This document shows, piece by piece, positions 3,601-47,061 of a DNA stretch of 64,000 nucleotides; position 1 is the first letter of the stretch; every line of letters starts with the position of its first letter. Source of the DNA: Alphaproteobacteria bacterium (GTDB taxonomy: Bacteria; Myxococcota_A; UBA796; SXON01); NCBI GenBank assembly GCA_040376425.1, contig JBEIQS010000002.1, positions 60,173 through 124,172 of the forward strand. The letters run 5' to 3'. The translations under genes and the position numbers were made by a program. The notes under the pieces are model-generated. The model made no database searches. It was not told the DNA's origin and saw only the letters and a program-made list of their open reading frames with translations.

Positions 3601-5085
3601 TTGCTTCTGCTGCTGAGCTCTCTGGCCTTTGCCCTGGATGAAGATCGCGTCCGCGTGCTGGTTTCCGAGTTTCAACCTCGGAACGAGGACAGCAAGGCCC
3701 TGGCCTCCCTGGTGGAAAACTTCCTGGCTTCCCGTCTGAAAGAAAATCAGGACATCGAGCTGGTGCGCCCGGAGCAGCTCCCGCCCTTTCAGGACTATTC
3801 TGCCCGGATCTACCTGGAAGGTTGCCCTGCGGGGGACATGATCGGCTGTACCTACGTCGCCGCCGAGCGCGGCGAGGTGGAGTGGGCGATCACCGGCACC
3901 ACGCGGGTGACCCCCTCTGCCTCCAAAGTGCAGGTGGAAATCTTGGATATCCGCTCCGGTCGCGTGGTGGTCAGCTTCGAGAGCGAGCTGGAGTCCGGCC
4001 AGGACGAAAAATTCGCCGAAGCGGTGGCGGAGATGCTGTCCGACGCCATTGGCGGCTCCTTCAAGCAGAGCGACATCCGGCAGCCCGACCCGGAATCCGA
4101 AGATCCCGAAGGGGATATGCGGAAGATGTCGGACGACGCCATCGCGCAGCAGCTCGACTCCCTCTCCCAGGAGCTGGGTGACATCTCCACCGTGATCAAC
4201 CGCCCGAATACGGTGATTGAACGCCCCGACTACACGATGGACGACCTGGCCGACCAGATGCAGGGTGAAGGCACCAAGCCCTGGGAGCGGCTGAACATGT
4301 CGCCCGGCGAGTACCTGCGCTACAAAAACTCCGGGCGGACCCTGGATGCCTGGCGGCAGCTTGCGACGGGTCGGCAGGGGCAGCTCCTCATTCGGCCGAC
4401 GGTCGGTTTTGGGATTCAGCCCTCCTACAACACCTACTACGGGCGCTATGCCTATGACTCCGGGCAGGTGGTGGATGTGTACACCGCCCAAGCGGTGACC
4501 AACGGCTTTGGCGGCTACTTTACCGCCGGTGTCGCCTACGGTGTCCACCCCTCCCTGGACGTGGGCCTGGACTTCGGCATCGCCTCGGGCCGGGTGACCC
4601 GCGACTACCAGCAGCAGACGGTGGGGCAGACCATCCCCAGTCCGGAAATCTACGCCTTCCAGGGCAGCTCCTTCGTGTTCGGGCCGCGCATTGTCGGCTC
4701 CTTCATCCCCGTCAGCCCCATCCGTCCGGTGGTGGGCGGGGCGGTGCAGTTCTGGCTGGGGGATACGGTACGCAGCAAGGAAGTTCCCCCCGAAGGACTT
4801 GCCAATTTCCCTGCTCCGCTAAGCATCATCGCCGAGGTGATGGTGGGCGCCGAGCTGCGGTTGACCAAGCGCGTCGACTTCTTTGTGCATGTGCCGGTGG
4901 ATCTGACGGTAGGTGGCAGTATTTTCCAGGAAAAACGCGAGGGCAGTGCCGACGTGCTGCAAGCCGTGCAGGCACCGGCGGTAGGCAGCATGGTCAGCGG
5001 CGGTCTGCGGGCCGGCCTGCAGGTGCGGCTGTTTGGAAAGAAAGTCAAAAGCTCGATCTTGGATGAGATGGAGGAGGAACCGTGA
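3601..5085 (+). CDS. Hypothetical secreted/envelope protein
   Basis: 494-aa ORF with a TTG start 5 nt after GGAGG (3591-3595). Short hydrophobic N-terminus LLLLLSSLAFA. The C-terminal half is Gly/aromatic-rich and beta-strand-like. No family recognised. Confidence 0.5.
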   Translation: MLLLLSSLAFALDEDRVRVLVSEFQPRNEDSKALASLVENFLASRLKENQDIELVRPEQLPPFQDYSARIYLEGCPAGDMIGCTYVAAERGEVEWAITGTTRVTPSASKVQVEILDIRSGRVVVSFESELESGQDEKFAEAVAEMLSDAIGGSFKQSDIRQPDPESEDPEGDMRKMSDDAIAQQLDSLSQELGDISTVINRPNTVIERPDYTMDDLADQMQGEGTKPWERLNMSPGEYLRYKNSGRTLDAWRQLATGRQGQLLIRPTVGFGIQPSYNTYYGRYAYDSGQVVDVYTAQAVTNGFGGYFTAGVAYGVHPSLDVGLDFGIASGRVTRDYQQQTVGQTIPSPEIYAFQGSSFVFGPRIVGSFIPVSPIRPVVGGAVQFWLGDTVRSKEVPPEGLANFPAPLSIIAEVMVGAELRLTKRVDFFVHVPVDLTVGGSIFQEKREGSADVLQAVQAPAVGSMVSGGLRAGLQVRLFGKKVKSSILDEMEEEP

Positions 5086-6581
5086 GCCTGGATCGTCTGT
5101 GGAGGGACTGCACCCTCGGCTTCAGCCTGGACTGGAGCGCCTGTCCAGCCTTCTCGGATGATTCTGTAGCCTGGACTACGGCGTTTTCGGAGATGGCCGA
5201 GCTGGAGGGCGGATCCATCGCCAACCCCGACGAGGGGCGGCAGGTGGGCCACTACTGGCTGAGGACGCCAGAATTGGCGCCGGAGGGGCTGGGTGCGCAG
5301 ATTCGCGCCGTCGTCTCCACCTGCAAAAAGTTCGCCTTTGCGCTGAAGAAGGAAGGGAAATTCAAGAATGCCCTCATCCTGGGCATCGGCGGCAGCGCCC
5401 TGGGTCCGGCCTTTTTGTCCTCCGCCCTGCAGGAGCCGGAGGACTGGATGCGCCTGGTGTTCATCGACAACACCGATCCCGAGGGGATGGCGCGGGTGAT
5501 CGGTCCCTTGGACCTGGAAGAAACGCTGGTGGTCTGCATCTCCAAGAGCGGCGGCACGCCGGAGACCCGCAACGCACTCATCGAGGTCCAAGCCGCCTTC
5601 GGGGTGGCGGGGCTGCCCTTCGCCGAGCACGCCGTGGCGATCAGCCAGGAAGGAAGCCGCTTGTGGAAGGAGGCGGAGGGCTGGAAGCTGCGGCTGCCCA
5701 TGTGGGACTGGGTGGGCGGACGGACTTCGGTGACCTCGGCCGTGGGGCTGTTGCCGCTGGCGCTGCAAGGGGCCGATGTGGAGCTGTTGTTGGAGGGGGC
5801 TGCGGCCATGGACGCCGCCACCCGCATTGCCGACCTGGAGAAAAACCCGGCGGCGATCCTGGCAAGAGCCTGGTACAACCTGGGTGAGGGCCGGGGCAAG
5901 CGTGCGATGGTGGTGCTGCCCTACCGGGATCGGCTGCTGCTCTTTTCGCGCTACCTACAGCAGTTGGTGATGGAGAGCCTCGGGAAAGAGAAGGATCTGG
6001 CCGGTAATCTGGTCTACCAGGGGCTGACGGTCTACGGCAACAAAGGCAGCACCGACCAGCACGCCTATGTGCAGCAATTGCGCGACGGTCCCGACGATCA
6101 TTTCGTGACCCTGATCGGGGTGCTGGACGACGGCTTTGTGGGGGAGGACGTGGAGCCCGGCATCCATGCTGGAGACTACCTCCAGGGATTTTTGATGGGC
6201 ACCTGGCAGGCGCTGCAGCCCCGGCACCCCGTGCTGATGCTGACCATGGACAACGTGGATGCCTTCCGATTGGGGGCTTTGGTCGCACTCTATGAGCGGG
6301 CGGTGGGCCTGTACGCCTTCCGCATCGGCGTCAATGCCTACCACCAGCCGGGGGTAGAGGCGGGCAAGAAGGCGGCCACGGGAATATTGGCGGCCAAGCT
6401 GCGCCTTCGGGAAGTGCTGAGCGCCGAGCCGCAGAACGCCGCCCAGCTTGCGGCCGCCGCCCATGTGGATGCGCGCACGGCCTGGTACCTGCTGAGCCGC
6501 ATGGGGGCGATGGGCGAGCTGAAGGTGGAGCGGGGAGAGGAAGCAGCGGGTGATCGCTTCCTACGGGTAGACGCCGGCTGA
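5082..6581 (+). CDS. pgi: Glucose-6-phosphate isomerase
   Basis: Motifs GIGGSALGP and ISKSGGTPETRNA are present. GTG start overlaps the upstream stop. Confidence 0.85.
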   Translation: MSLDRLWRDCTLGFSLDWSACPAFSDDSVAWTTAFSEMAELEGGSIANPDEGRQVGHYWLRTPELAPEGLGAQIRAVVSTCKKFAFALKKEGKFKNALILGIGGSALGPAFLSSALQEPEDWMRLVFIDNTDPEGMARVIGPLDLEETLVVCISKSGGTPETRNALIEVQAAFGVAGLPFAEHAVAISQEGSRLWKEAEGWKLRLPMWDWVGGRTSVTSAVGLLPLALQGADVELLLEGAAAMDAATRIADLEKNPAAILARAWYNLGEGRGKRAMVVLPYRDRLLLFSRYLQQLVMESLGKEKDLAGNLVYQGLTVYGNKGSTDQHAYVQQLRDGPDDHFVTLIGVLDDGFVGEDVEPGIHAGDYLQGFLMGTWQALQPRHPVLMLTMDNVDAFRLGALVALYERAVGLYAFRIGVNAYHQPGVEAGKKAATGILAAKLRLREVLSAEPQNAAQLAAAAHVDARTAWYLLSRMGAMGELKVERGEEAAGDRFLRVDAG

Positions 6582-26634: not shown

Positions 26635-27309
26635 ATGTTTCTCCTCTGGGTGGCGATCGGTCTCGCCGGCACGCCGGAAGATGTAAGCGTGGCCGGAAAC
26701 CGGGACCTCGCCGTGGAGGAGCGGCAGCCCGCCTTTGATCGGCTGGTGAGCGGGCAGGACGTGGCCGGACTGGTTGAGGTGGGGAAGAACACGGATCGGA
26801 CCGTGTCGGAGCGCTGGGTGGCTATCCGGGCCCTCGGGCTGGTGCCCACCGTTGAAGCGCGGCAGGCGCTGGTGGACTTTCTGGACCACGGGGATGTGTG
26901 GGCCAGGATCGCGGCCTCGGGCGCAGCCGGCGAGCGCGGCGACCGGAGCATGGCCGGAAAGGTGGCCATGCGGCTGACCGACCCGGCGATCCTGGTGCGG
27001 GCCGCCGCCGCCGAAGCGCTAGGAAAACTGAAAGATCCTGGCACCCTGGGCGACCTGGAGCGGGCGCTGAAGGACCCCACAAGCTGGTATCGCGGCACCT
27101 CGCTGTGGATCCGACGCAAATATGTCGAGGCCATGGCCAGTGTCGGAATTGAAAGTGGCCCCTACCTGGCGCGGGCGCTGGAGGACAAAGACCCCGTTGT
27201 CAGTGCCGCCGCCCTGCGCGGCCTGGAGCAGGTCGCCGGCTTCTCCTATAAAGAGGGACGGACGGCCGAGGAAGAGAAGGAAGCATGGCGCCGTTGGGCA
27301 GGGAAATAG
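26635..27309 (+). CDS. HEAT-repeat protein
   Basis: Trimmed to ATG 26635. Repeated xRxxAxxALGxL units are present (VAIRALGLV, VRAAAAEALGKLKDP, VSAAALRGLEQV). Confidence 0.6.
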   Translation: MFLLWVAIGLAGTPEDVSVAGNRDLAVEERQPAFDRLVSGQDVAGLVEVGKNTDRTVSERWVAIRALGLVPTVEARQALVDFLDHGDVWARIAASGAAGERGDRSMAGKVAMRLTDPAILVRAAAAEALGKLKDPGTLGDLERALKDPTSWYRGTSLWIRRKYVEAMASVGIESGPYLARALEDKDPVVSAAALRGLEQVAGFSYKEGRTAEEEKEAWRRWAGK

Positions 27310-27316
27310 GCGGCCA

Positions 27317-27775
27317 ATGGGAGCTTTGCTGCTATCTGGCCTGCTGTGGGCGGGGCCCGGAGAGCAGGCCGCCTTGGCGGAGCGTCGACATCTGATACGC
27401 CTTGGCGCCTGGGCCGGAACCAGCGCCCTGGGTGGCACGGTGATGCTGGTGGCCGGACGGAAAGACCCGTTCTATCGGCACCTCGGCATACAGAGTATCG
27501 GCTGGAGCTTGATTAACGGCGCGATCGTCGCCGCCTCCTGGAAGGGCACGGAAGAGCCCAAGACCGCCGACCAGATGGCATGGTCGCGCGAGTTTGTCAA
27601 TCTGAACCTCGGTTTAGACGTAGCCTACATGGGCGTGGGCATCACCCTGACCTGGACGGGGTTGCAAGAGCCACAGCGGCGGGGGCTGGCCGGAGCCGGT
27701 CTGGGCATCTCTATCCAAGGCGCTGCGCTGCTGATCCTGGATGCCATTCTGTTGGCCCAATATCCCAAACCCTGA
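27317..27775 (+). CDS. Small integral membrane protein
   Basis: Trimmed to ATG 27317. Four predicted hydrophobic helices. No family recognised. Confidence 0.5.
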   Translation: MGALLLSGLLWAGPGEQAALAERRHLIRLGAWAGTSALGGTVMLVAGRKDPFYRHLGIQSIGWSLINGAIVAASWKGTEEPKTADQMAWSREFVNLNLGLDVAYMGVGITLTWTGLQEPQRRGLAGAGLGISIQGAALLILDAILLAQYPKP

Positions 27776-27899
27776 GGAAAACGGGGCGGACCACCGCGCG
27801 CGTGGACGCGGGACACACAATAACATGTTCCGCATTTTCCATATACTTCCAATATTATTGACAATACAGTACAAATATAGCACCTACAACATTCCCGAC

Positions 27900-29340
27900 G
27901 TTGTACTGCCCGGGAAAACCGAGGCCCTCCCATAGGGGACTCTCGGAATCGCATGGGGACCCCAGCATGTGTCCCACCGCGCACCCCTACGCAAAAAACC
28001 AACTGTTGCTTTAAGCCAAGGCGGCGCCCCCCGCTTCAGGGGCAGCCCATGCCCTATTGGACCGCCACCGGCACCCCCGCCGCCGCTTTCCTTACCCAGC
28101 AGCAAAAAGAGCAAACGCACGTCCTTTCCCGACGGGCTACGACATGGCCCCCCGGGCCGTGGCCCCCGCAGCTCCTTCAACCAACAACACTGCCTTCCGA
28201 CAGCGTCCGAACGGCCCCTTTCCCCACCCCGCTCCCTCTTCTCAGCCAACATCCCCCCGCTCCCGACATCCTCCCAAAAACCCGGAAAACCAGGCAAGGC
28301 GCCGCCCAGCAACACCCGGCACCACCCCCTCCCCCCGGTTTTCCCTCCAAACACTACTCCACTCACGACAAGCCCGCACCCGCTCCTCCAAATGCGTGCG
28401 GGGGCGTTCATTTCGGAGCTGCGTCCACCCCCTCCCACCCCCGCGGCCCTCCCCATCCGCGTTTTCCCGGCCAACACTGTTGGCTAACGACGCCCCGGAG
28501 AGTCCCCCGGAAATGGCTCCCCCCGTGCCCATTTCCAGCTCGGCCGCAGCCCCCCTCTTCCGACCCACTGAGGGCTTTTTCGGCAAACGCAAACTACTTA
28601 CGACAGCCCTGATCCGGCCCTCCAAATGGGCTCTCCCGTGCCCATTTGGCGCCCCTCCCCACCTGGCCCCCGCCCCTCACCCCGCCGGGGGGGGACCCCG
28701 CCAAAGGCCGTCCAGACCCCTGTCGTAAGCACTTTGCGTTTGTCAGGAAAACCACACCCTGGTCAGAATGGTCGGGCCGGTTAGGATGTGGGGGAGGGCA
28801 GACCCCGGCGCCACCCTCCCCAGCCCCGGCGGGAGTCCCCCTCCCGAAATCCGCCCCACCCGCACGGATTTCCAAAAAGCCATCGCGATGAAAAAATCGT
28901 TTGAATGGAAAACCAACCCCCGGTCAGAATTGTGACCAAGGCGGGAGCCACCAAAGCCCCGCTGGCGGCGTGCCGCAAAGCCCCTTCTCCCGCGCCCATT
29001 TCCAATCTTCAGGTCGCTTTTCGTCGTAAGCAGAATCCACTTGATCGGAAAACCGACCCCGGCCGCCTCACCCAGCCCTCCCACACCGCGTCGCAAGGCA
29101 AATGCAGTCCGTTTTGCCGCAGCTCTGCAGGCAAAATCCCTGCGTCGTCAGGCAGAGGGGTTTTCCGCGCTCGCGTCCACCTCTGACCCCGGCGGCCCCT
29201 ACCGGGAGTGCGTCGTAAGGCACATCTGTCACGTTTTCCGGCCCCCACAGAGGGAAGCACCCCGGGGCGAAGTGGACTCCCGAAAAAGACCTTCCCGGTC
29301 AGAAGGGGCGGGATAAAAGACCCATCCCCTGCCGAGGAAG
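27900..29340. repeat. ORF-poor, C-skewed region dense in short repeated motifs (GGAAAACC/GGTTTTCC, GTCGTAAG/CTTACGAC, GGTCAGAA, GAAAT-stem hairpins)
   Basis: Exact GGAAAACC at 27913, 28284, 28746, 28907 and 29047. Exact GGTTTTCC at 28337 and 29159. GTCGTAAG at 28722, 29023 and 29212. CTTACGAC at 28597. GGTCAGAA at 28761, 28922 and 29297. Confidence 0.75.
28584..28742. repeat. 23-bp inverted repeat pair (21/23 complementary) flanking 113 bp
   Basis: 28584-28606 is caaacgcaaactacttacgacag. 28720-28742 is ctgtcgtaagcactttgcgtttg, whose reverse complement is caaacgcaaagtgcttacgacag. Confidence 0.8.
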
Positions 29341-29342
29341 CC

Positions 29343-30179
29343 ATGAAGGAAGGTCAGCCCAGCACCACCGCCGAAGCCGTCGCGTTTTGGCGGGCCCTGG
29401 AGCAGCACTATCCCCCCGAGCGTCGCATTTTGGATGATGGTTGGGCGCATCATTTTATGACCCGGCACACGCGCGCACTTCTAAAAATGAACGGTAATCC
29501 TTGGATTATTTCTCAATCTGACCATGTTTTTGGTCTGGGGACGATGGTCTACACGCTGCTGAGGCATCGCTGGATGGACCTTGCTTTTGAGCGTGCGGCC
29601 GGGCCCTTGGAACAGGTGCTGATTTTAGGTGCCGGCTACGATATGCGGGCCTTTCGCCTAAATTTTGGCGATGCGAAGGTCTTTGAGATCGATCATCCGG
29701 CCACCGGTGGCCGCAAAGCCCGCAAGGTGGCCACCTTGGGGCGCCCGGATCCTGTCCATCGGATCTCCGTGGACTTTTCAACCGAGAACCTCGCGCACGC
29801 TCTGGAGCGCGCAGGCTTTCAAAAAGACCGTAAATCCTGGTTTTTCTGGGAAGGAGTCTCTATGTACCTGCCGGAAGCGGCGGTGCGCTCCACCCTCACG
29901 GTTTTGTCCTCCTGGGGTTGTGAGGGGGTGCTGGACCTCTACGCGCCTCTGGAACATCCCGGTCTGGGTGGCTTCTACCGCCGTACCCTGCCCAGAGTGG
30001 TAGAACTCGTGGGAGAACCTGTCGATTTCCTCCTCCGTCCCGAACATGGCGAAGCCTTCGCCCGCGAGCTGGGCTTCCGCGTGCAGGCACTGGCAACCCA
30101 CCGGGATCTCCGCCTCCTTTCCCCACGCCCCGCCGCGCCCAACGAGAGCGGCTGGCTGATGCACCTGGTCCCCGCCTGA
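29343..30179 (+). CDS. Class I SAM-dependent O-methyltransferase, LCM (leucine carboxyl methyltransferase, PF04072/TIGR00027-like) family
   Basis: Trimmed to ATG 29343. Motifs VLILGAGYDMRAFRL, VFEIDHPATGGRKARKV and WFFWEGVSMYLPEAAV match my recollection of the LCM family. Confidence 0.7.
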   Translation: MKEGQPSTTAEAVAFWRALEQHYPPERRILDDGWAHHFMTRHTRALLKMNGNPWIISQSDHVFGLGTMVYTLLRHRWMDLAFERAAGPLEQVLILGAGYDMRAFRLNFGDAKVFEIDHPATGGRKARKVATLGRPDPVHRISVDFSTENLAHALERAGFQKDRKSWFFWEGVSMYLPEAAVRSTLTVLSSWGCEGVLDLYAPLEHPGLGGFYRRTLPRVVELVGEPVDFLLRPEHGEAFARELGFRVQALATHRDLRLLSPRPAAPNESGWLMHLVPA

Positions 30180-30208
30180 GCACTGCTCGGACCGCGCGCC
30201 CACCGCCC

Positions 30209-30246
30209 ATGCGCGCCCGCGCATTCCCACGATGCGCGCGCATCGT
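30209..30246. promoter_or_regulatory. Two adjacent GC-rich palindromes sharing the ATGCGCG half-site
   Basis: ATGCGCG-CC-CGCGCAT at 30209-30224, and the perfect 18-mer ACGATGCGCGCGCATCGT at 30229-30246. They lie 30 nt after the methyltransferase stop and upstream of peptide gene A. Confidence 0.4.
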
Positions 30247-30368
30247 CTGGCTACCCCTGACCTTGCAATAATCGGCCTTGGTCCGTTCGGGGGAGCCGGC
30301 ATGGCCCTTGCATAAGGGGAGTACAGCCGGATGAAGCCCGCTCCGGCCCACACCCAAGGAAGGACCCC

Positions 30369-30470
30369 ATGACCAAGCCCCTCTCGCTCACCGACTGCAA
30401 GCGCATCGTGACCCCCTCTGTCCGCACCGGCGTGCGCGCTGGGACTGGCAACGGTCGCTTCCGCTTCTAA
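30369..30470 (+). CDS. 33-aa peptide A (MTKPLSLTDCKRIVTPSVRTGVRAGTGNGRFRF), candidate modified-peptide precursor
   Basis: Hand-translated. ATG is 4 nt after AAGGAAGGA, with a TAA stop. A paralogue lies 231 nt downstream with synonymous-biased divergence. Not in the ORF track because it is under 60 aa. Confidence 0.6.
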   Translation: MTKPLSLTDCKRIVTPSVRTGVRAGTGNGRFRF

Positions 30471-30599: not shown

Positions 30600-30701
30600 A
30601 TGCAAAAGCCCCTTTCGACGGCCGACTGCAAGCGAATCGCCACCCCCTCCGTCCGCACCGGTGTGCGTGCAGGAGCCGGCAACGGTCGCTTCCGCTTCTG
30701 A
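30600..30701 (+). CDS. 33-aa peptide B (MQKPLSTADCKRIATPSVRTGVRAGAGNGRFRF), paralogue of peptide A
   Basis: Hand-translated. ATG is 4 nt after GAGGA, with a TGA stop. 28/33 residues are identical to peptide A. Confidence 0.6.
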   Translation: MQKPLSTADCKRIATPSVRTGVRAGAGNGRFRF

Positions 30702-41902: not shown

Positions 41903-43039
41903 ATGGCGCTCCGCTTCGCGGACTACCGCAAACGGATGGAAAAGGCCGCTACTGCATGGATTTCCGGCCGAAATCTATTGACAGGTCAAGCCCCCTACAT
42001 CCTGAAAGACCACACTCAGTGGCCGCAAAACCTGCTTGAACCGGGTCTTGCCGGAATGATTGAGGCGGAACGTACTCTTCGCGCGACCACCGGCGCGGGA
42101 TTTCCCCTCCACAAATACCTGCACCACGGGCTCTCCAGCCAGGCCATGTTGTTCAACCTGGTGTTGCCCCTGCAGCAGAAGGGGGACATCGACGCATGGA
42201 AGGGCGGCTTTGAGGCGGCGGGGATCCCCTGGCCCGGCCCGGATGCCACGGCGCGGCTGGAGGTGGAGGATCGCAGCCTGTTCAACGAAAATAGCGGCCA
42301 ACCCACCAGCTTTGATCTGGAGATCAGCGGACCCGGCGGTCCCAGCCTGTACATCGAAGCCAAGCTGGTGGAGCAGGAGTTCGGCGGATGCAGCCTGTTG
42401 GAGGGGGGAGACTGTGACGGCGAAAACCCGGCGAAGGACCATCAGAAGTGTGCCCTGGTCGGCCTGGGCAGGCGCTATTGGGAGAGACTGGACGCCCTCG
42501 GTTTTGACCTCTCCGCAGGTCCTATCTGCCCCTTTGGCAGCTACTACCAGTTCTATCGAGAGGCTGCCTACGCCCTGACCCGGGGAGGGCACTTTGTGCT
42601 ATTGGTCCACGACCAGAACCCCGCCTTCTGGAAAGATGGCGGAGAACGTGGCCTGTGGCCGCTGCTCCTCCGAACGGTCCCTCAACAGCATCGTAGCCGC
42701 CTGCACCGCCTCAGCCTCCAGCAGCTTGCGGAGGCACTGCGCCAGACCGGCCGCCACCCGTGGATCGACGAATTCTCCACCCGCTACGCCCTGAACGCTC
42801 CGGTATTGACAGGTCAAGCCCCTGAAGACGTCCTGGCGCTGCTTCCTCTGCCCACCGCCGCCGCCATCCGTCGACTGTGGGAAGATGTCGCCAAAGGGGG
42901 CCAAGAGGGTCGAACAGCACAGACACGCATCTCCAAACGGCTGGCCGGAGAAGGGATCTTCAAGGGAGATCCACGCTGGGAGCGTGTGATCGGGTATGGG
43001 CGGGGGTTGTACTATGGGGATGGAAGCGGTACGATCTGA
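41903..43039 (+). CDS. Hypothetical protein with PD-(D/E)xK nuclease-like motif
   Basis: FDLEISG...LYIEAKLVEQEFG fits a D...ExK arrangement. It starts 4 nt after the upstream stop. Family not recognised. Confidence 0.4.
   Translation: MALRFADYRKRMEKAATAWISGRNLLTGQAPYILKDHTQWPQNLLEPGLAGMIEAERTLRATTGAGFPLHKYLHHGLSSQAMLFNLVLPLQQKGDIDAWKGGFEAAGIPWPGPDATARLEVEDRSLFNENSGQPTSFDLEISGPGGPSLYIEAKLVEQEFGGCSLLEGGDCDGENPAKDHQKCALVGLGRRYWERLDALGFDLSAGPICPFGSYYQFYREAAYALTRGGHFVLLVHDQNPAFWKDGGERGLWPLLLRTVPQQHRSRLHRLSLQQLAEALRQTGRHPWIDEFSTRYALNAPVLTGQAPEDVLALLPLPTAAAIRRLWEDVAKGGQEGRTAQTRISKRLAGEGIFKGDPRWERVIGYGRGLYYGDGSGTI
41976..41994 (+). repeat. 19-nt exact direct repeat copy 1 (tattgacaggtcaagcccc), containing palindrome TTGAC-AG-GTCAA
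   Basis: Read directly. It encodes LLTGQAP. Confidence 0.85.
42804..42822 (+). repeat. 19-nt exact direct repeat copy 2 (tattgacaggtcaagcccc)
   Basis: Read directly. It lies 828 bp (276 codons) downstream of copy 1, in the same frame, and encodes VLTGQAP. Confidence 0.85.
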
Positions 43040-43041
43040 GC

Positions 43042-43467
43042 ATGCCCATTGTACTCCCTCCCTTTGACCGCAGCACCGGTGGCTGTTCCGCACCGGAGTT
43101 TCTGTCCAAGCTGCTTCCGGCCTTCACCCTCGCCAATGAAATCTGCCGCGAGTGCTGCGTCATTCACGACGAAATCTACTACTACGGCGGCACCCGTGAG
43201 GACCGGCGTGCGGCGGATCTGGCGCTGCAGAGCTGTATTGAGGGGCACGGCTTTCCCTCGGTAGCCGAGCAGTACTTTTTTGCTGTGCGACCTTTTGGCG
43301 GGCCGGAGCACCGCATCCCCAAGGTGAGCTGGGCCTTCGGCGGCTTGCGCTTTGTCTATGATACCGACCTGGTCCCCAACAGCCCAAGCCAAAAGGCACT
43401 TCGGGCACTCCAAAAGCGGGCGAAGGCCGAAAAAGATCTTCGAAAGGTTGGAAAAAAGCCAACCTGA
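43042..43467 (+). CDS. Small HD-motif protein (DUF1353-like / phospholipase-A2-like CCxxHDxxY motif)
   Basis: Trimmed to ATG 43042, 2 nt after the upstream stop. CRECCVIHDEIYYYGGTREDRRAADLAL...AVRPFGG is present. The family call is tentative. Confidence 0.35.
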   Translation: MPIVLPPFDRSTGGCSAPEFLSKLLPAFTLANEICRECCVIHDEIYYYGGTREDRRAADLALQSCIEGHGFPSVAEQYFFAVRPFGGPEHRIPKVSWAFGGLRFVYDTDLVPNSPSQKALRALQKRAKAEKDLRKVGKKPT

Positions 43468-43553
43468 CCGCTGCGCAAGCGGCCGTCGAAATTATCTGCA
43501 CACCCTTGCTTGTGGTCGCCGCCAGGATACCAACAAAAAGCGTGAGGTGTGCC

Positions 43554-44903
43554 ATGTCGAAAAGTCAGGCCCCCCAACAGTCCCACCGTTCCGGCCCGGC
43601 ACCGGCTCCGTCGGGGAACGGGGCTGGGAGGGCGGCTGTCAGCCCTACAAACCAACGCGGCAACGCCTTCGCCGCACAGCAGGTCACTGCCGCGCTGGCT
43701 GCCTCTGGAAGTGCGCCCGAAAAGAAGGGCACACCTTCGGGAACCGGCGGAGCCGCGATTCCAGCATCGATTCGCAGCCGGATGGAACAGCGCTTCGGAG
43801 CCGATTTTTCCAGTGTAAAAGTGGTGATTGACCCGGAGCTGGCGAAGGCCAGCACCCAGGCATTCACGACTGGGGATACAATCCGATCGGCTTCCTCCCA
43901 GATTCTCTCGGGGTCACCTGCCGGAGACAAGCTGCTTGCCCACGAGCTTACCCACGTCGTACAGCAACGCAGCGGACGTGTTGGAAAGGGGGATGGAGAT
44001 CAAGCTGACCCCGATCCGTCTCTGGAGGCAGAAGCCCAGCGCCAAGGCGAGCAGGTGGCGGGTGACGAACCTGCCTCGGTTGGGGGCGGCCCGGACCAAT
44101 CGGCCCCCTCCCGGGAGTCCGTTCCAAAGGCTGCCCCCACGCAATCCGCCCCCGCCCAACGCGCCGGCCCTGCCATCCCCATCATCATCTGGGGTGGCAA
44201 AGCACTCGCCGCCACCACCCTCGACCACTTCATTGACTTTGCGATCGCGGCCATTCTCGGCCTTCCCGCACCGGGACTCGCCGACGACGCCATCAACTTT
44301 GCCATCAACCTCGTGCCATTCTTGGGTGAAGCCAAAAAAGTAAAGAAGATCGCCAAGCTGTTTGAGCTGGTCGACAAAGTCAGCGATTTCGTGAAGCGCA
44401 TGAAGACGCTCAACAAGGGGGGCAAGCGACTACTGGACAACATTGTCCGCGAATCTGGAAAATTGCGGGAGGCTATCGACAGCTTGGAGCTGGAGAAAGC
44501 CAAAGCTGCCTTCGGCCGGCTGATCGGGCACGTGCGCGAAGGACAGGTGGCGGCAAAACTGGGTGGAGAGTCTGGCGAAAAACTGATATTCACCGGAATG
44601 GACAAGCTCAGGGACGGCACCAAGCTCGGTACCGACATCGACGTGGTCTTCAAGGAAGGCAACGATGTCGTGTTCGGCGAAGTGAAGGCTTTGAGCGCCG
44701 GAAACCCTGTTCCTGGCACCAAGAGCTGGGATGAGTTCATGGCCAAGGCTGACATCAAGCTCGACGCGGCCAAGAAGTACAGCGATCTGGAGGGCGTTAC
44801 CACCAAGCTCCGGTACTATGTGGACGAGATCTCTGACGAAGCACGGCAGGCGTTGGAGGCCAAAGGCATTGACGTCGTCTTGAACGGAACCATCTTGAAT
44901 TGA
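43554..44903 (+). CDS. DUF4157 (zincin-like HExxH) N-terminal domain polymorphic toxin with PD-(D/E)xK-like C-terminal domain
   Basis: Trimmed to ATG 43554. RMEQRFGADFSSVKV...LLAHELTHVVQQ is the DUF4157 hallmark. The C-terminus has GTDIDVVF...VVFGEVKAL. The 3' third is visibly lower in GC: 29 G+C in the 60 nt from 44341. Confidence 0.7.
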   Translation: MSKSQAPQQSHRSGPAPAPSGNGAGRAAVSPTNQRGNAFAAQQVTAALAASGSAPEKKGTPSGTGGAAIPASIRSRMEQRFGADFSSVKVVIDPELAKASTQAFTTGDTIRSASSQILSGSPAGDKLLAHELTHVVQQRSGRVGKGDGDQADPDPSLEAEAQRQGEQVAGDEPASVGGGPDQSAPSRESVPKAAPTQSAPAQRAGPAIPIIIWGGKALAATTLDHFIDFAIAAILGLPAPGLADDAINFAINLVPFLGEAKKVKKIAKLFELVDKVSDFVKRMKTLNKGGKRLLDNIVRESGKLREAIDSLELEKAKAAFGRLIGHVREGQVAAKLGGESGEKLIFTGMDKLRDGTKLGTDIDVVFKEGNDVVFGEVKALSAGNPVPGTKSWDEFMAKADIKLDAAKKYSDLEGVTTKLRYYVDEISDEARQALEAKGIDVVLNGTILN

Positions 44904-45547: not shown

Positions 45548-46945
45548 TCAAGCCTCCGTCGACGCCTCCGCCTCATCTGCCGTCTGCGCCACCCCCGGCA
45601 CCTGCGGCGCTGCCAACAAAAAGCGCCCCAGACCCAGGGCCAAGAGCCCGGCCACACCGCTCGCGCCCAGAATGCCCAGGCGGGCCGCATCCAGAAGCGC
45701 CGGATCCACAAAGGCGAGCTGTGCCACAAAGAGCGCCATGGTGAAGCCGATGCCCGCAACGGTCCCCAAGACCAGCAGATGCCGGAAGCCCAGCCCCTTG
45801 GGCAGCGCCACCCACCCCAGCCATTTTGTAAGATATACTACAATCAGAATTCCCAGAGGTTTGCCCAGCAAAAGGCCAAGCGCCACCCCGGGGATCACCC
45901 GAGCTGCATCGCCCGCCACACTGAAGCCGGCAATCGACACCCCTGCATTGGCCAACGCAAAAATCGGCATGATCCCATAGGCCACCCACGGATGCAGCGT
46001 CTCAATCAGCCCCTCAGCGGGCGACGTCGCTTCCCGACGCAGGTGATCCACCTCGGCCAGCGCCTCGGTCAACGCGTGCCCCTGCAGCTCGCGCAGGTCA
46101 CGCTGCCCCTCCACATGGCGTTGCAAGCCTGCGATCAGACCATCCACCCCCACCCAGGCACGCACCGGGGTCAACAACCCCAGAATTACCCCCGCGATCG
46201 TGGGATGAATACCCGCCGCATACACTCCCGCCCACAGCACCACACCGGCGGGCACATAGGCCCACCTCGACCGGACGCCCAGCCCCTGCAGCAGAAAGAC
46301 GCCGGCAATCCCCGCCCCAGCAACCGCGAAGCCCGACCACTGCAGACCCTCGCTATAAAAGAGGGCGATCACCAGAATTGCGCCCAGATCGTCGATCACC
46401 GCCACCGCCAACAACAGCACCCGCAGTGCCGCAGGCACCCGCTTTCCCAGGAGCGCCAGCACTCCCACCGCAAAGGCGATGTCCGTAGCCATGGGCACCC
46501 CCCAGCCACTCCGCGTGGTCGGCCCCCCCGCGATGGCCAGATAGATCAGGGCCGGGGCGATCATTCCGCCAATGGCCGCGGCCACTGGCAGCGCCGCCCG
46601 ACGCAGCTCTGAAAGCTCGCCATGGTGGATCTCCCGCCGGATTTCCAGGCCCACTACAAAAAAGAAGATCACCATCAGCCCATCGTTCACGATCCAGGCC
46701 AGATCGCGTGCGAAAGACCAACCACCCAGAGAAATACCCACCTTCAGTGCCCAAAAATCGGCCACCTGCCCCGACCAGGGCGAGTTGGCCAAAGCCAAGG
46801 CCACGGCCGCAGCCACCAACAGCAGAATGCCGCTGGCGGCCTCGATCGCCAGAAAACGCTCCAGCGGCAAACGGGCGAAGCGTGCGAGTTTTTGGAGGGG
46901 GGCCCATGCGCCCGGAGGGGGGGAAGGAGAAGGCGGAGCCGCCAT
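45548..46945 (-). CDS. nhaA: Na+/H+ antiporter NhaA
   Basis: VVGLEIRREI and AVAVIDDLGAILVIALFY motifs are present, with about 12 TM helices. Confidence 0.9.
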   Translation of the reverse strand: MAAPPSPSPPPGAWAPLQKLARFARLPLERFLAIEAASGILLLVAAAVALALANSPWSGQVADFWALKVGISLGGWSFARDLAWIVNDGLMVIFFFVVGLEIRREIHHGELSELRRAALPVAAAIGGMIAPALIYLAIAGGPTTRSGWGVPMATDIAFAVGVLALLGKRVPAALRVLLLAVAVIDDLGAILVIALFYSEGLQWSGFAVAGAGIAGVFLLQGLGVRSRWAYVPAGVVLWAGVYAAGIHPTIAGVILGLLTPVRAWVGVDGLIAGLQRHVEGQRDLRELQGHALTEALAEVDHLRREATSPAEGLIETLHPWVAYGIMPIFALANAGVSIAGFSVAGDAARVIPGVALGLLLGKPLGILIVVYLTKWLGWVALPKGLGFRHLLVLGTVAGIGFTMALFVAQLAFVDPALLDAARLGILGASGVAGLLALGLGRFLLAAPQVPGVAQTADEAEASTEA

Positions 46946-47061
46946 TGCGTCACCTCGGCCAATGCCGAAGAGATGGCGGCCCGACCATCCCGGATCCTGC
47001 AGTCAAGGACTGCACCCCTTCCGTGCCGATTAACCCGCCGATGTGCCGCTGTAAATGTGGA

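Follow-up and report, generated by a model that had tools for sequence, protein, structure and literature searches.

Repeated recognition sequences in bacterial regulatory DNA are known from multi-operator and titration regions, such as Escherichia coli datA, and from the looping systems deo, gal and lac. Enterobacterial repetitive extragenic palindromic (REP) sequences and bacterial interspersed mosaic elements (BIMEs) are imperfect palindromes in alternating orientation with conserved linkers, with hundreds of copies scattered over each genome. Few bacterial intergenic regions longer than 1 kb are under strong purifying selection, and the studied cases are mostly large non-coding RNAs (ncRNAs) or unusual control regions. 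Within the same phylum as the locus described here, the Pxr paralogs of Cystobacter are units of one orientation with sigma-54 promoters, three stable stem-loops and a terminator (PMC5568312). Here we present an analysis of a non-coding region at positions 27776–29342 of a 64-kb window (the whole stretch of DNA analysed, 64,000 nt of contig JBEIQS010000002.1), located between a DUF6992 gene and the gene for an LCM/TIGR00027-family methyltransferase. The locus is modular, non-coding and selectively maintained, which sets it apart from a mere compositional oddity. Tentatively, and with less than even confidence, we read it as a cis-acting DNA array of putative protein-binding and promoter-like modules.

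The repeating unit is a module of ~100 nt with a fixed order of parts: a near-palindrome, termed H, is followed after 14–20 nt by box A (GTCGTAAG), 8–9 nt, GTTTG, 3 nt, box B (GGAAAACC), 7 nt (often nnnCCCn) and box C (GGTCAGAA). Spacing is fixed within modules, at 16–17 nt from A to B and 7 nt from B to C. The H consensus is CCGAAAT-nnG-YCYnCCCGCR-Cnn-ATTTCC, of which CCCG and ATTT are invariant in 17 copies. At least six modules are present, three on the minus strand to the left (Um3, Um2 and Um1) and three on the plus strand to the right (Up1, Up2 and Up3), and both sets point away from a variable centre (Table 1). A hidden Markov model (HMM) of the core found six copies in the window, all of them in the region (minus ends at 28373, 28493 and 28610; plus starts at 28719, 28879 and 29018), and no further copy in the other 62 kb. 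The modules are irregularly spaced, at 113–161 bp, and their cores are 60–81% identical to one another, on both strands.

Um1 and Up1 form a specific inverted repeat of ~50 nt, with a duplex energy of −48 to −56 kcal/mol in three species; Um2:Up2 and Um3:Up3 lack specific complementarity. Um1 is the left arm of the central inverted repeat (34 nt, 79% complementary; core match E=1e-8), and Up1, which is the best core match (E=2e-10) and near-invariant in orthologs, is the right arm. Um3 was matched by nhmmer both in its core (28373–28335, E=2e-4) and in its H (E=8e-6), and is conserved in two related loci described below, L025 and L045; its H1 is the sole H in minus orientation. No other 100 nt of the locus are as well conserved as Up2 with its H4, which agrees with L025 in perfect blocks of 49 nt and 31 nt. 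To the right of the modules lie three pairs of an A box and an inverted B box (type 2), in which the boxes and most of the spacer are kept in five lineages, and a last B′-C copy whose C box ends 38 nt 5′ of the methyltransferase ATG (29343; ribosome-binding site GAGGA at 29334–29338). This proximal copy is kept in all orthologs as CCGAAAAAGRCC..GGTCRRAAG.

The composition of the region is equally distinctive. It contains 627 C and 369 G, and the local GC skew reaches −0.46, stronger than in any coding part of the window; positions 28201–28260 hold 34 C and 8 G. The C-over-G skew is conserved even in spacers that are otherwise unconstrained and, because of it, canonical G-quadruplex motifs are found on the minus strand only (five at 28215–28827, zero on plus; 11 versus 0 in L025 and 5 versus 0 in L045), an asymmetry that the more distant loci L008 and L017 lack. 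The region is non-coding, because the GC content of its open reading frames (ORFs) is flat, ~0.65 at each of codon positions 1/2/3, and none of its 12 ORFs has a Pfam match; in the flanking genes the three positions have 0.60–0.74, 0.41–0.57 and 0.67–0.85. A small conserved ORF at 28768–28935 was considered and rejected: its stop codon is lost in L045 and its substitutions have no third-position bias. Gene callers put spurious proline-rich ORFs in the array (for example, L045 2645–3145 and 3425–3973).

Within the region, GGAAAACC occurs five times (27913, 28284, 28746, 28907 and 29047) and GGTTTTCC twice (28337 and 29159), with three and two further copies, respectively, in the rest of the window. 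Counted over the whole window, GTCGTAAG (n=3), CGTTTTCC (n=2) and CTTACGAC (n=1) all fall inside the region, and all three copies of GGTCAGAA on its strand lie there too. Two composite units of 36 nt lie at 28737 and, 161 bp further on, at 28898; they share 81% identity. The pattern GRAAAAS-N8-GGTCRRAA has three matches against 0.00 expected and GSAAAAC-N17-CGAC two against 0.07, all within the region. An initial annotation of this DNA, made from the letters alone, had described the missing third-position G/C bias, the C skew, the 8-mer counts and their scarcity in the other 62 kb, 30-nt composites 161 bp apart, and a flip of orientation between the left and middle parts. These observations were reproduced, with the base counts of 28201–28260 and the 8-mer counts exact on recount of region and window (the motifs are almost absent from the other 62 kb); the composites extend to 36 nt, the flip corresponds to minus modules on the left and plus modules on the right, and the composites are enriched far beyond chance.

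A pattern scan of GTDB genomes returned 16 single chance-level matches and one contig, L025, with three matches in a minus/plus/plus layout. L025, from an 'uncultured proteobacterium' metagenome-assembled genome (MAG) from Lake Erken, is a syntenic ortholog comprising array, methyltransferase, peptides, JmjC and PBP1C; the gene 5′ of the array differs from that of the window. Further loci were traced through members of the methyltransferase 90% cluster. In L045–L047 the region is complete and its upstream genes are those of the window; L048, L049 and L050 contain the right half only. The resulting ortholog alignment covers five related Myxococcota lineages, with six sequences in the right half and three lineages in the left half.

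Between the window and L025, intergenic identity is 71–77% from 28085 onwards and 41–56% in the spacers and centre, and exact blocks of at least 10 nt, among them perfect blocks of 49, 33, 31 and 28 nt, add up to 453 intergenic nt and coincide with the modules. Across the five lineages, hardly any base changes in the H4-A-B-C block or in the other A, B and C boxes, the spacers vary freely, and the modules pair one-to-one in an array that holds the same position beside the methyltransferase gene. The two methyltransferases are 85% identical as proteins and 50% identical at fourfold-degenerate sites. Because the boxes are invariant while fourfold sites next door are only 50% identical, the boxes are under strong purifying selection. 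This bears directly on the notion that the region is without function, made of decayed gene copies or a neutral low-complexity repeat, as the long ORFs that stand open on the C-rich strand, some of them annotated by gene callers in other assemblies, might suggest. We regard that notion as barely credible: codon-position signal and Pfam matches are absent, substitutions in the conserved blocks have no third-position bias (by eye, in the ortholog alignment), and blocks of up to 49 nt are invariant though adjacent synonymous sites are near saturation.

Table 1 Coordinates of the array, its modules and neighbouring features in the window.
Feature	Position	Strand	Description
Non-coding array region	27776–29342		Whole gap between DUF6992 gene and methyltransferase gene
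DUF6992 gene	27122–27775	+	Left neighbour of the array region
LCM/TIGR00027-family methyltransferase gene	ATG at 29343	+	Right neighbour of the array region
Left flank	27776–28084		AT-rich patch ~27820–27885 with AAATATAGC common to orthologs; 41% aligned identity to L025
B-like boxes in left flank	27776, 27913, 27995	+	Plus-oriented
Sigma-70-like match	27820–27847		ATAACA-16-TATACT; sole such match in left flank
Degenerate outer modules, left set	28085–28326	−	Exact blocks common with L025; covered by the three-species alignment; rcA-like CTnCCGAC boxes
Conserved block	28102–28116		GCAAAAAGAGCAAAC; in outer left modules
Conserved block	28256–28296		CCCGCTCCCGACATCCTCCCAAAAACCC-GGAAAACCAGGCA; in outer left modules
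Module Um3	28327–28417	−	Plus-strand rcB GGTTTTCC 28337–28344, rcA CTCACGAC 28363–28370, H1 28385–28417
Module Um2	28446–28540	−	rcB CGTTTTCC 28460–28467, rcA CTAACGAC 28486–28493, H2 28505–28539; nhmmer core and H matches, ortholog alignment
Module Um1	28551–28650	−	rcC TTCCGACC 28558–28565, rcB′ GCTTTTTC 28574–28581, CAAAC, rcA CTTACGAC 28597–28604, H3
H3 of Um1	28622–28649		CCAAATGGGC-TCTCCCGT-GCCCATTTGG
Variable centre	28651–28716		Very GC-rich; polarity switch of modules; 45% identity to L025
Module Up1	28717–28770	+	A GTCGTAAG 28722–28729, GTTTG 28738–28742, B GGAAAACC 28746–28753, C GGTCAGAA 28761–28768
Module Up2 with H4	28837–28937	+	A-like ATCGCGATG 28883–28891, GTTTG, B 28907–28914, C 28922–28929
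H4 of Up2	28845–28872		GAAATCCG-CCCCACCCGCA-CGGATTTC
Module Up3 with H5	28971–29060	+	H5 28971–29007 (5′ arm degenerate), A 29023–29030, B 29047–29054; without C box
Type-2 pairs	29089–29120, 29142–29167, 29210–29241	−	Three A-box/inverted-B-box pairs
Methyltransferase-proximal B′-C copy	29279–29305	+	CCCGAAAAAGACC-N5-GGTCAGAAG; C box 29297–29304
Sigma-54 promoter of peptide gene 1	30297–30312		Near-consensus, cGGCAtGgcccTTGCA; in L025 3117–3132, TGGCACGggccTTGCA
Paralogous 33-aa peptide genes	30369–30470, 30600–30701		Also L025 3189, L007 953

The array also recurs in more distant genomes. Two such loci, L017 and L008, were found by the core HMM among loci already collected. L017, which is labelled Alphaproteobacteria, has four minus and two plus cores and four H motifs flanking ~1 kb; its array lies between convergent genes, is not accompanied by a methyltransferase of the window type and encloses unrelated central DNA, and a gene for a Dam-type methyltransferase is nearby. 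Its outward-facing sets flank ~17–25 tandem 15-bp copies of an A-box-like word, GTGTCGCAT, which look like the expansion of a protein-binding site. The L017 centre (5368–5712 and 5085–5310) also contains ~17 tandem 15-bp units (GGGCCGGTGTCGCAT), further GTGTCGCATC copies and an element of ~225 bp that resembles a miniature inverted-repeat transposable element (MITE) and has terminal inverted repeats TACCGAAyCGrGAAATAGA. In L008, whose methyltransferase is 56% identical to that of the window, weaker, regularly spaced cores lie on both sides of a centre directly upstream of the gene, and one core ends ~30 nt 5′ of its ATG. Methyltransferase homologs at 46–54% identity (L002–L006 and L042–L044) have no upstream array. 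Each stretch examined has one array locus, with no extra copy seen in the rest of the ~8-kb related loci.

A relic or domesticated non-autonomous mobile element, with Tn7- or Mu-like ends carrying several recombinase sites, or a nested MITE cluster could have left such a layout: the two opposed site sets point outward from a centre, a 34-nt inverted repeat lies there, L017 has its array between convergent genes with unrelated DNA in the middle, and the gene 5′ of the array changes between the window and L025. We nevertheless consider this origin unlikely, with the array held in a constant position beside the methyltransferase gene even at 56% protein identity and its copies one-to-one orthologous and under purifying selection. 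The neighbouring ORFs examined include no transposase or recombinase gene, no second copy was found in 64 kb, and the sites are 113–161 bp apart, whereas transposon ends are far more compact. Plasmids, phages and viral contigs are likewise without a match: a distant-mode blastn search of plasmids and phages with the region found none, and a pattern scan of viral contigs gave only four single chance matches. A metagenome pattern scan with GGAAAACCNNNCCCNGGTCAGAA gave 12 single matches, none like the region by blastn, and a literature search for the 8-mers returned primer noise only.

The grammar of the array, its strict spacing and orientation pattern, the strong purifying selection on its boxes and its presence in distant genomes are established. 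We favour the DNA-array reading over an RNA function, with a mobile-element relic and then a replication or segregation site trailing behind. Conservation of the boxes in both orientations with fixed spacing is what protein recognition of duplex DNA leads one to expect, and is not expected of the helices of one RNA. In the mechanism that we propose, the boxes would be recognition sites for one or more sequence-specific DNA-binding proteins, for an RNA polymerase holoenzyme, or for both. The gene-adjacent B′-C copy would serve as promoter or operator of the methyltransferase gene, the other copies might act as cooperative or titrating binding sites and/or as outward-firing promoters of short divergent transcripts, and the trans-acting factor would be encoded away from the array.

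The best clue to a role in the initiation or control of transcription is that, even where the protein is as little as 56% identical, a B′-C copy or core precedes the methyltransferase start by a constant short distance; the B′-C copy lies at the same short distance from the ATG in the window, L025, L045, L048 and L049. Up1 contains a promoter-like TTGTCA-18-CAGAAT (28740–28769; sigma-70 score 9 of 12), one of just two sigma-70-like matches in the region, and TTGnnn-18-CAGAAT is present in Up1 and Up2 of every ortholog. The first and third type-2 pairs, read on the minus strand, are G(C/G)AAAAC-N17-CGAC. Promoters of extracytoplasmic function (ECF) sigma factors have a GGAAC-like −35 element, 16–17 bp and a −10 element like CGTC or CGAC, and the type-2 pairs may be said to have an ECF-sigma-like −35/−10 geometry against this consensus. 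A sigma-54 promoter (GG-N10-GC, TGGCAC-N5-TTGC) was also considered and, by inspection, fits no module.

The same stretch before the ATG bears on the annotation of the methyltransferase itself. Its ORF is open from a GTG at 29208, and the Joint Genome Institute (JGI) annotates 322-aa versions from that start (P0250 and P0253). The extension encoded by 29208–29342 is not conserved as protein save for PKKTFPV, which is the translated B′-C DNA block. Because the ATG at 29343 and its GAGGA are conserved and the extension is not, the 322-aa form is probably a mis-annotation.

Several observations weigh against the DNA-array reading. Um1 and the methyltransferase-proximal copies have CGGAAG, CGAAAG or CAGAAG in place of CAGAAT. 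The C box is kept as GGTCRRAA, with a variable last base and, in several copies, a G at the −11 equivalent, so that a sigma-70 reading is not valid for all modules. No regulator gene adjoins the array among the Pfam-scanned window ORFs and the neighbours in related loci. The polarity of the H motif is not predicted by a purely duplex-DNA model: apart from H1, the asymmetric CCCG centre of H stays on the same strand even where the neighbouring core is turned round. In the window, L025 and L045, this is the strand richer in C; in L008, skew and H orientation are both reversed. The inner stems of H vary between copies yet stay complementary (GGGC/GCCC, CCG/CGG and ACG/CGT), and a few substitutions fit only G-U pairs on the core-sense strand; the complementarity and these G-U-compatible changes hint at single-strand hairpins.

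The H polarity keeps alive the alternative that the locus works as RNA, either as a long transcript of the C-rich strand or as short paralogous small RNAs (sRNAs), whose H hairpins with CCCG loops and purine-rich boxes would bind an RNA-binding protein or target RNAs as sponge, scaffold or leader. We hold this to be a serious though doubtful possibility. H is polar and on the C-rich strand in each lineage, its stems covary among paralogs, and some substitutions keep only G-U-compatible pairs on the core-sense strand. On the plus strand, the fold of the H4-Up2 block has four hairpins and z = −3.4 (−2.3 on the minus strand), contiguous near-invariant blocks of 100 nt are unusual for binding-site arrays, and tandem sRNA paralogs with their own promoters are known in myxobacteria (Pxr; PMC5568312).

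Other results are less favourable to an RNA. The RNAalifold covariation term is unfavourable on both strands (+2.73 on plus and +1.51 on minus; six sequences, right half); in the left half, three lineages give low covariation power. The cores are equally conserved in both orientations and H in one; because the cores flip while H keeps its orientation, H and core cannot belong to a single transcript unit in the left and the right set alike. A good hairpin fails to form in about half of the H copies, and specific complementarity is limited to Um1:Up1. Canonical terminators do not seem to follow the units. A terminator scan gave five weak minus-strand matches against 2.7 expected, much weaker than the peptide-gene terminators of the same locus, and the reverse complement of B-C forms a short hairpin with UUUU that is of good quality in L017 alone. 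Over the whole window, the sole Rfam match at gathering thresholds is nhaA-I (46971–47017), outside the region; at E≤10, the region gave three chance-level matches (E 1.6–6.9), far below threshold.

Three more specific RNA models were tried and rejected. A C-box hairpin as a conserved RNA motif is formed inconsistently. A 'ladder' of Um3:Up3, Um2:Up2 and Um1:Up1 helices has specific complementarity in its innermost pair only. Against a CsrA/Rsm-type sponge, the GGA of box B is lost in the Up3 orthologs (CCAAAACC and CGAAAACC) and the boxes lie outside predicted loops.

With these results, the four options that the initial annotation had offered without choosing among them can be ranked. An array of protein-binding sites is the best reading; the RNA option is weakened as a large structured RNA, with neither an Rfam match in the region nor a favourable covariation term, and survives through the H polarity. 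Decayed gene cassettes are unlikely, with no codon signal, Pfam match or similarity to the peptide cassette, and a genome-specific interspersed cluster is made unlikely by base-for-base conservation at the same position in five lineages and by the lack of a copy elsewhere in 64 kb. The initial annotation was right to set aside clustered regularly interspaced short palindromic repeats (CRISPR) and insertion sequences; decayed genes, junk and CRISPR are essentially excluded. It missed the module grammar, the H near-palindrome, the copy before the methyltransferase start and the separate sigma-54 promoter of the peptide genes.

A wider and rather speculative reading, which we rank as improbable, would join both kinds of part in an undescribed class of large non-coding element. 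Such an element would be a bipolar nucleoprotein/RNA platform that combines strand-polar H hairpins (RNA or extruded single-stranded DNA on the C-rich strand, with the other strand prone to G-quadruplexes) and orientation-switching duplex boxes. Its role might be to capture or load, from both sides, a polymerase, a helicase or a recombination machine, and it would be common to deep Myxococcota lineages and at least one MAG labelled Alphaproteobacteria.

The opposed polarity of the repeated sites resembles the Ter site arrangement, and a replication or segregation site, whether an iteron-type origin, a centromere-like site or a polar fork trap of opposed sites, could draw on this general likeness, on the AT-rich patch at the left edge, and on the 15-bp tandem array and neighbouring Dam-type methyltransferase of L017. 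Such a site is nonetheless very unlikely here. The window ORFs scanned include no rep, par, dnaA or tus-like gene, and no DnaA-box cluster is visible. The GC skew over 64 kb tracks gene orientation without a switch at the locus, module spacing is irregular, and the association with the methyltransferase would go unexplained.

The array also affects assembly. Four independent short-read assemblies end inside it, 510–626 nt 5′ of the methyltransferase ATG: L001 starts at the equivalent of window position 28717, and L048, L049 and L050 at ~28787–28817. The breaks thus fall at the variable centre or at most ~100 nt to its right, beside spacers of ~85% GC (an estimate from the sequence). Coverage loss in these spacers is the simplest cause, and structural heterogeneity may be another.

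3′ of the methyltransferase gene lie two 33-aa peptide genes (30369 and 30600), a gene for a JmjC/cupin protein, PBP1C and an alpha-2-macroglobulin gene. The peptide genes, which sit between the LCM-type methyltransferase gene and the JmjC/cupin gene, encode the pattern MxKPLS..DCKRI.TPSVRTGVRAG.GNGRFRF, and each is followed by a strong terminator hairpin. The methyltransferase, peptide and JmjC/cupin set looks like a cluster of the ribosomally synthesized and post-translationally modified peptide (RiPP) type. Upstream of the sigma-54 promoter, at 30205–30260, are two conserved palindromes, ATGCGCGCC-CGCGCAT and GATGCGCGCGCATC, which look like enhancer-binding-protein sites. Because this promoter and these palindromes lie upstream of it, the peptide cassette seems to have its own control, separate from the array rather than directly governed by it.

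The window is chromosomal, as it carries PGI, GS-III, DnaJ and NhaA, and its organism is an uncultured member of the Myxococcota; the best named GS-III matches are 66–69% identical, and entries in the methyltransferase cluster bear the name 'MAG TPA: Myxococcota bacterium'. An exact look-up of the upstream DUF6992 protein gave no record, and a tRNA/tmRNA scan found none. Elsewhere in the window, the nhaA-I riboswitch (minus strand, 47.2 bits, above the Rfam gathering score) lies directly 5′ of the NhaA antiporter gene (45548–46945), the expected arrangement. At 41903–44903, an ARP-associated restriction-endonuclease-like protein adjoins an eCIS-core-domain protein, and the two could belong to a defence or contractile-injection island. 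Genes for a C39-peptidase ABC exporter and an HlyD protein lie at 15.5–19.4 kb.

Myxococcota are rich in unexplored regulators and natural products. The grammar of the array is explicit and open to testing, with five elements in fixed order, a pair of opposed sets and a copy placed at a gene start; its conservation exceeds the neutral rate by far, and Rfam has no counterpart of it. Once found, the factor that reads the boxes would lead to a new regulator or sigma specificity in this phylum, and might also explain the control of the RiPP-like cluster of methyltransferase, peptide and JmjC-hydroxylase genes. In practical terms, annotations contain spurious ORFs and an extended methyltransferase N-terminus at this locus, and short-read assemblies tend to break there.

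The array shares traits with several described systems. As in CRISPR, a ~32-nt core with GTCG at its start and GAAAAC at its end is repeated at rather even intervals; however, CRISPR repeats are near-identical and of one orientation, whereas the copies here are 60–81% identical, on both strands and 113–161 nt apart. The 'spacers' between them hold the H motif and blocks conserved in five lineages, and no Cas domain was found among the ~30 Pfam-scanned window ORFs, a part of all ORFs. Unlike iteron origins, the window lacks tandem short repeats and a rep or dnaA gene and has an AT-rich patch only, and unlike large structured ncRNAs of the OLE, GOLLD or ROOL kind, the array lacks support from compensatory changes (RNAalifold, right half). 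The type-2 pairs (GGAAAAC-N17-CGAC, minus strand) recall ECF promoters and are kept in five lineages, but their spacers are also conserved, the same boxes are arranged in the main modules in a way incompatible with such a promoter, and no ECF sigma gene is nearby. With REP sequences and BIMEs, the array has in common imperfect palindromes, alternating orientation, short conserved linkers and an extragenic position, in L017 between convergent genes; it differs in being single-locus in every stretch examined (the 64-kb window and ~8-kb related loci) and in its longer, more complex units.

Pxr is similar in several respects: it belongs to the same phylum, its ~100-nt paralogous units stand in tandem in one intergenic region, its paralogs diverge more than its orthologs, and the units here could also have promoters of their own. 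By contrast, the units of the array flip orientation, fit no sigma-54 motif and lack both a covariation-backed fold and an Rfam match. We know of no described system with the array's grammar. It also resembles datA, deo, gal and lac, in which a repeated recognition sequence is likewise spread over hundreds of bp in both orientations, with one copy overlapping the promoter-proximal part of a gene and with conserved boxes between free spacers. The array departs from them in its unit, a ~100-bp composite of five ordered elements, which is present in 6–10 copies and arranged in two opposed sets round a centre.

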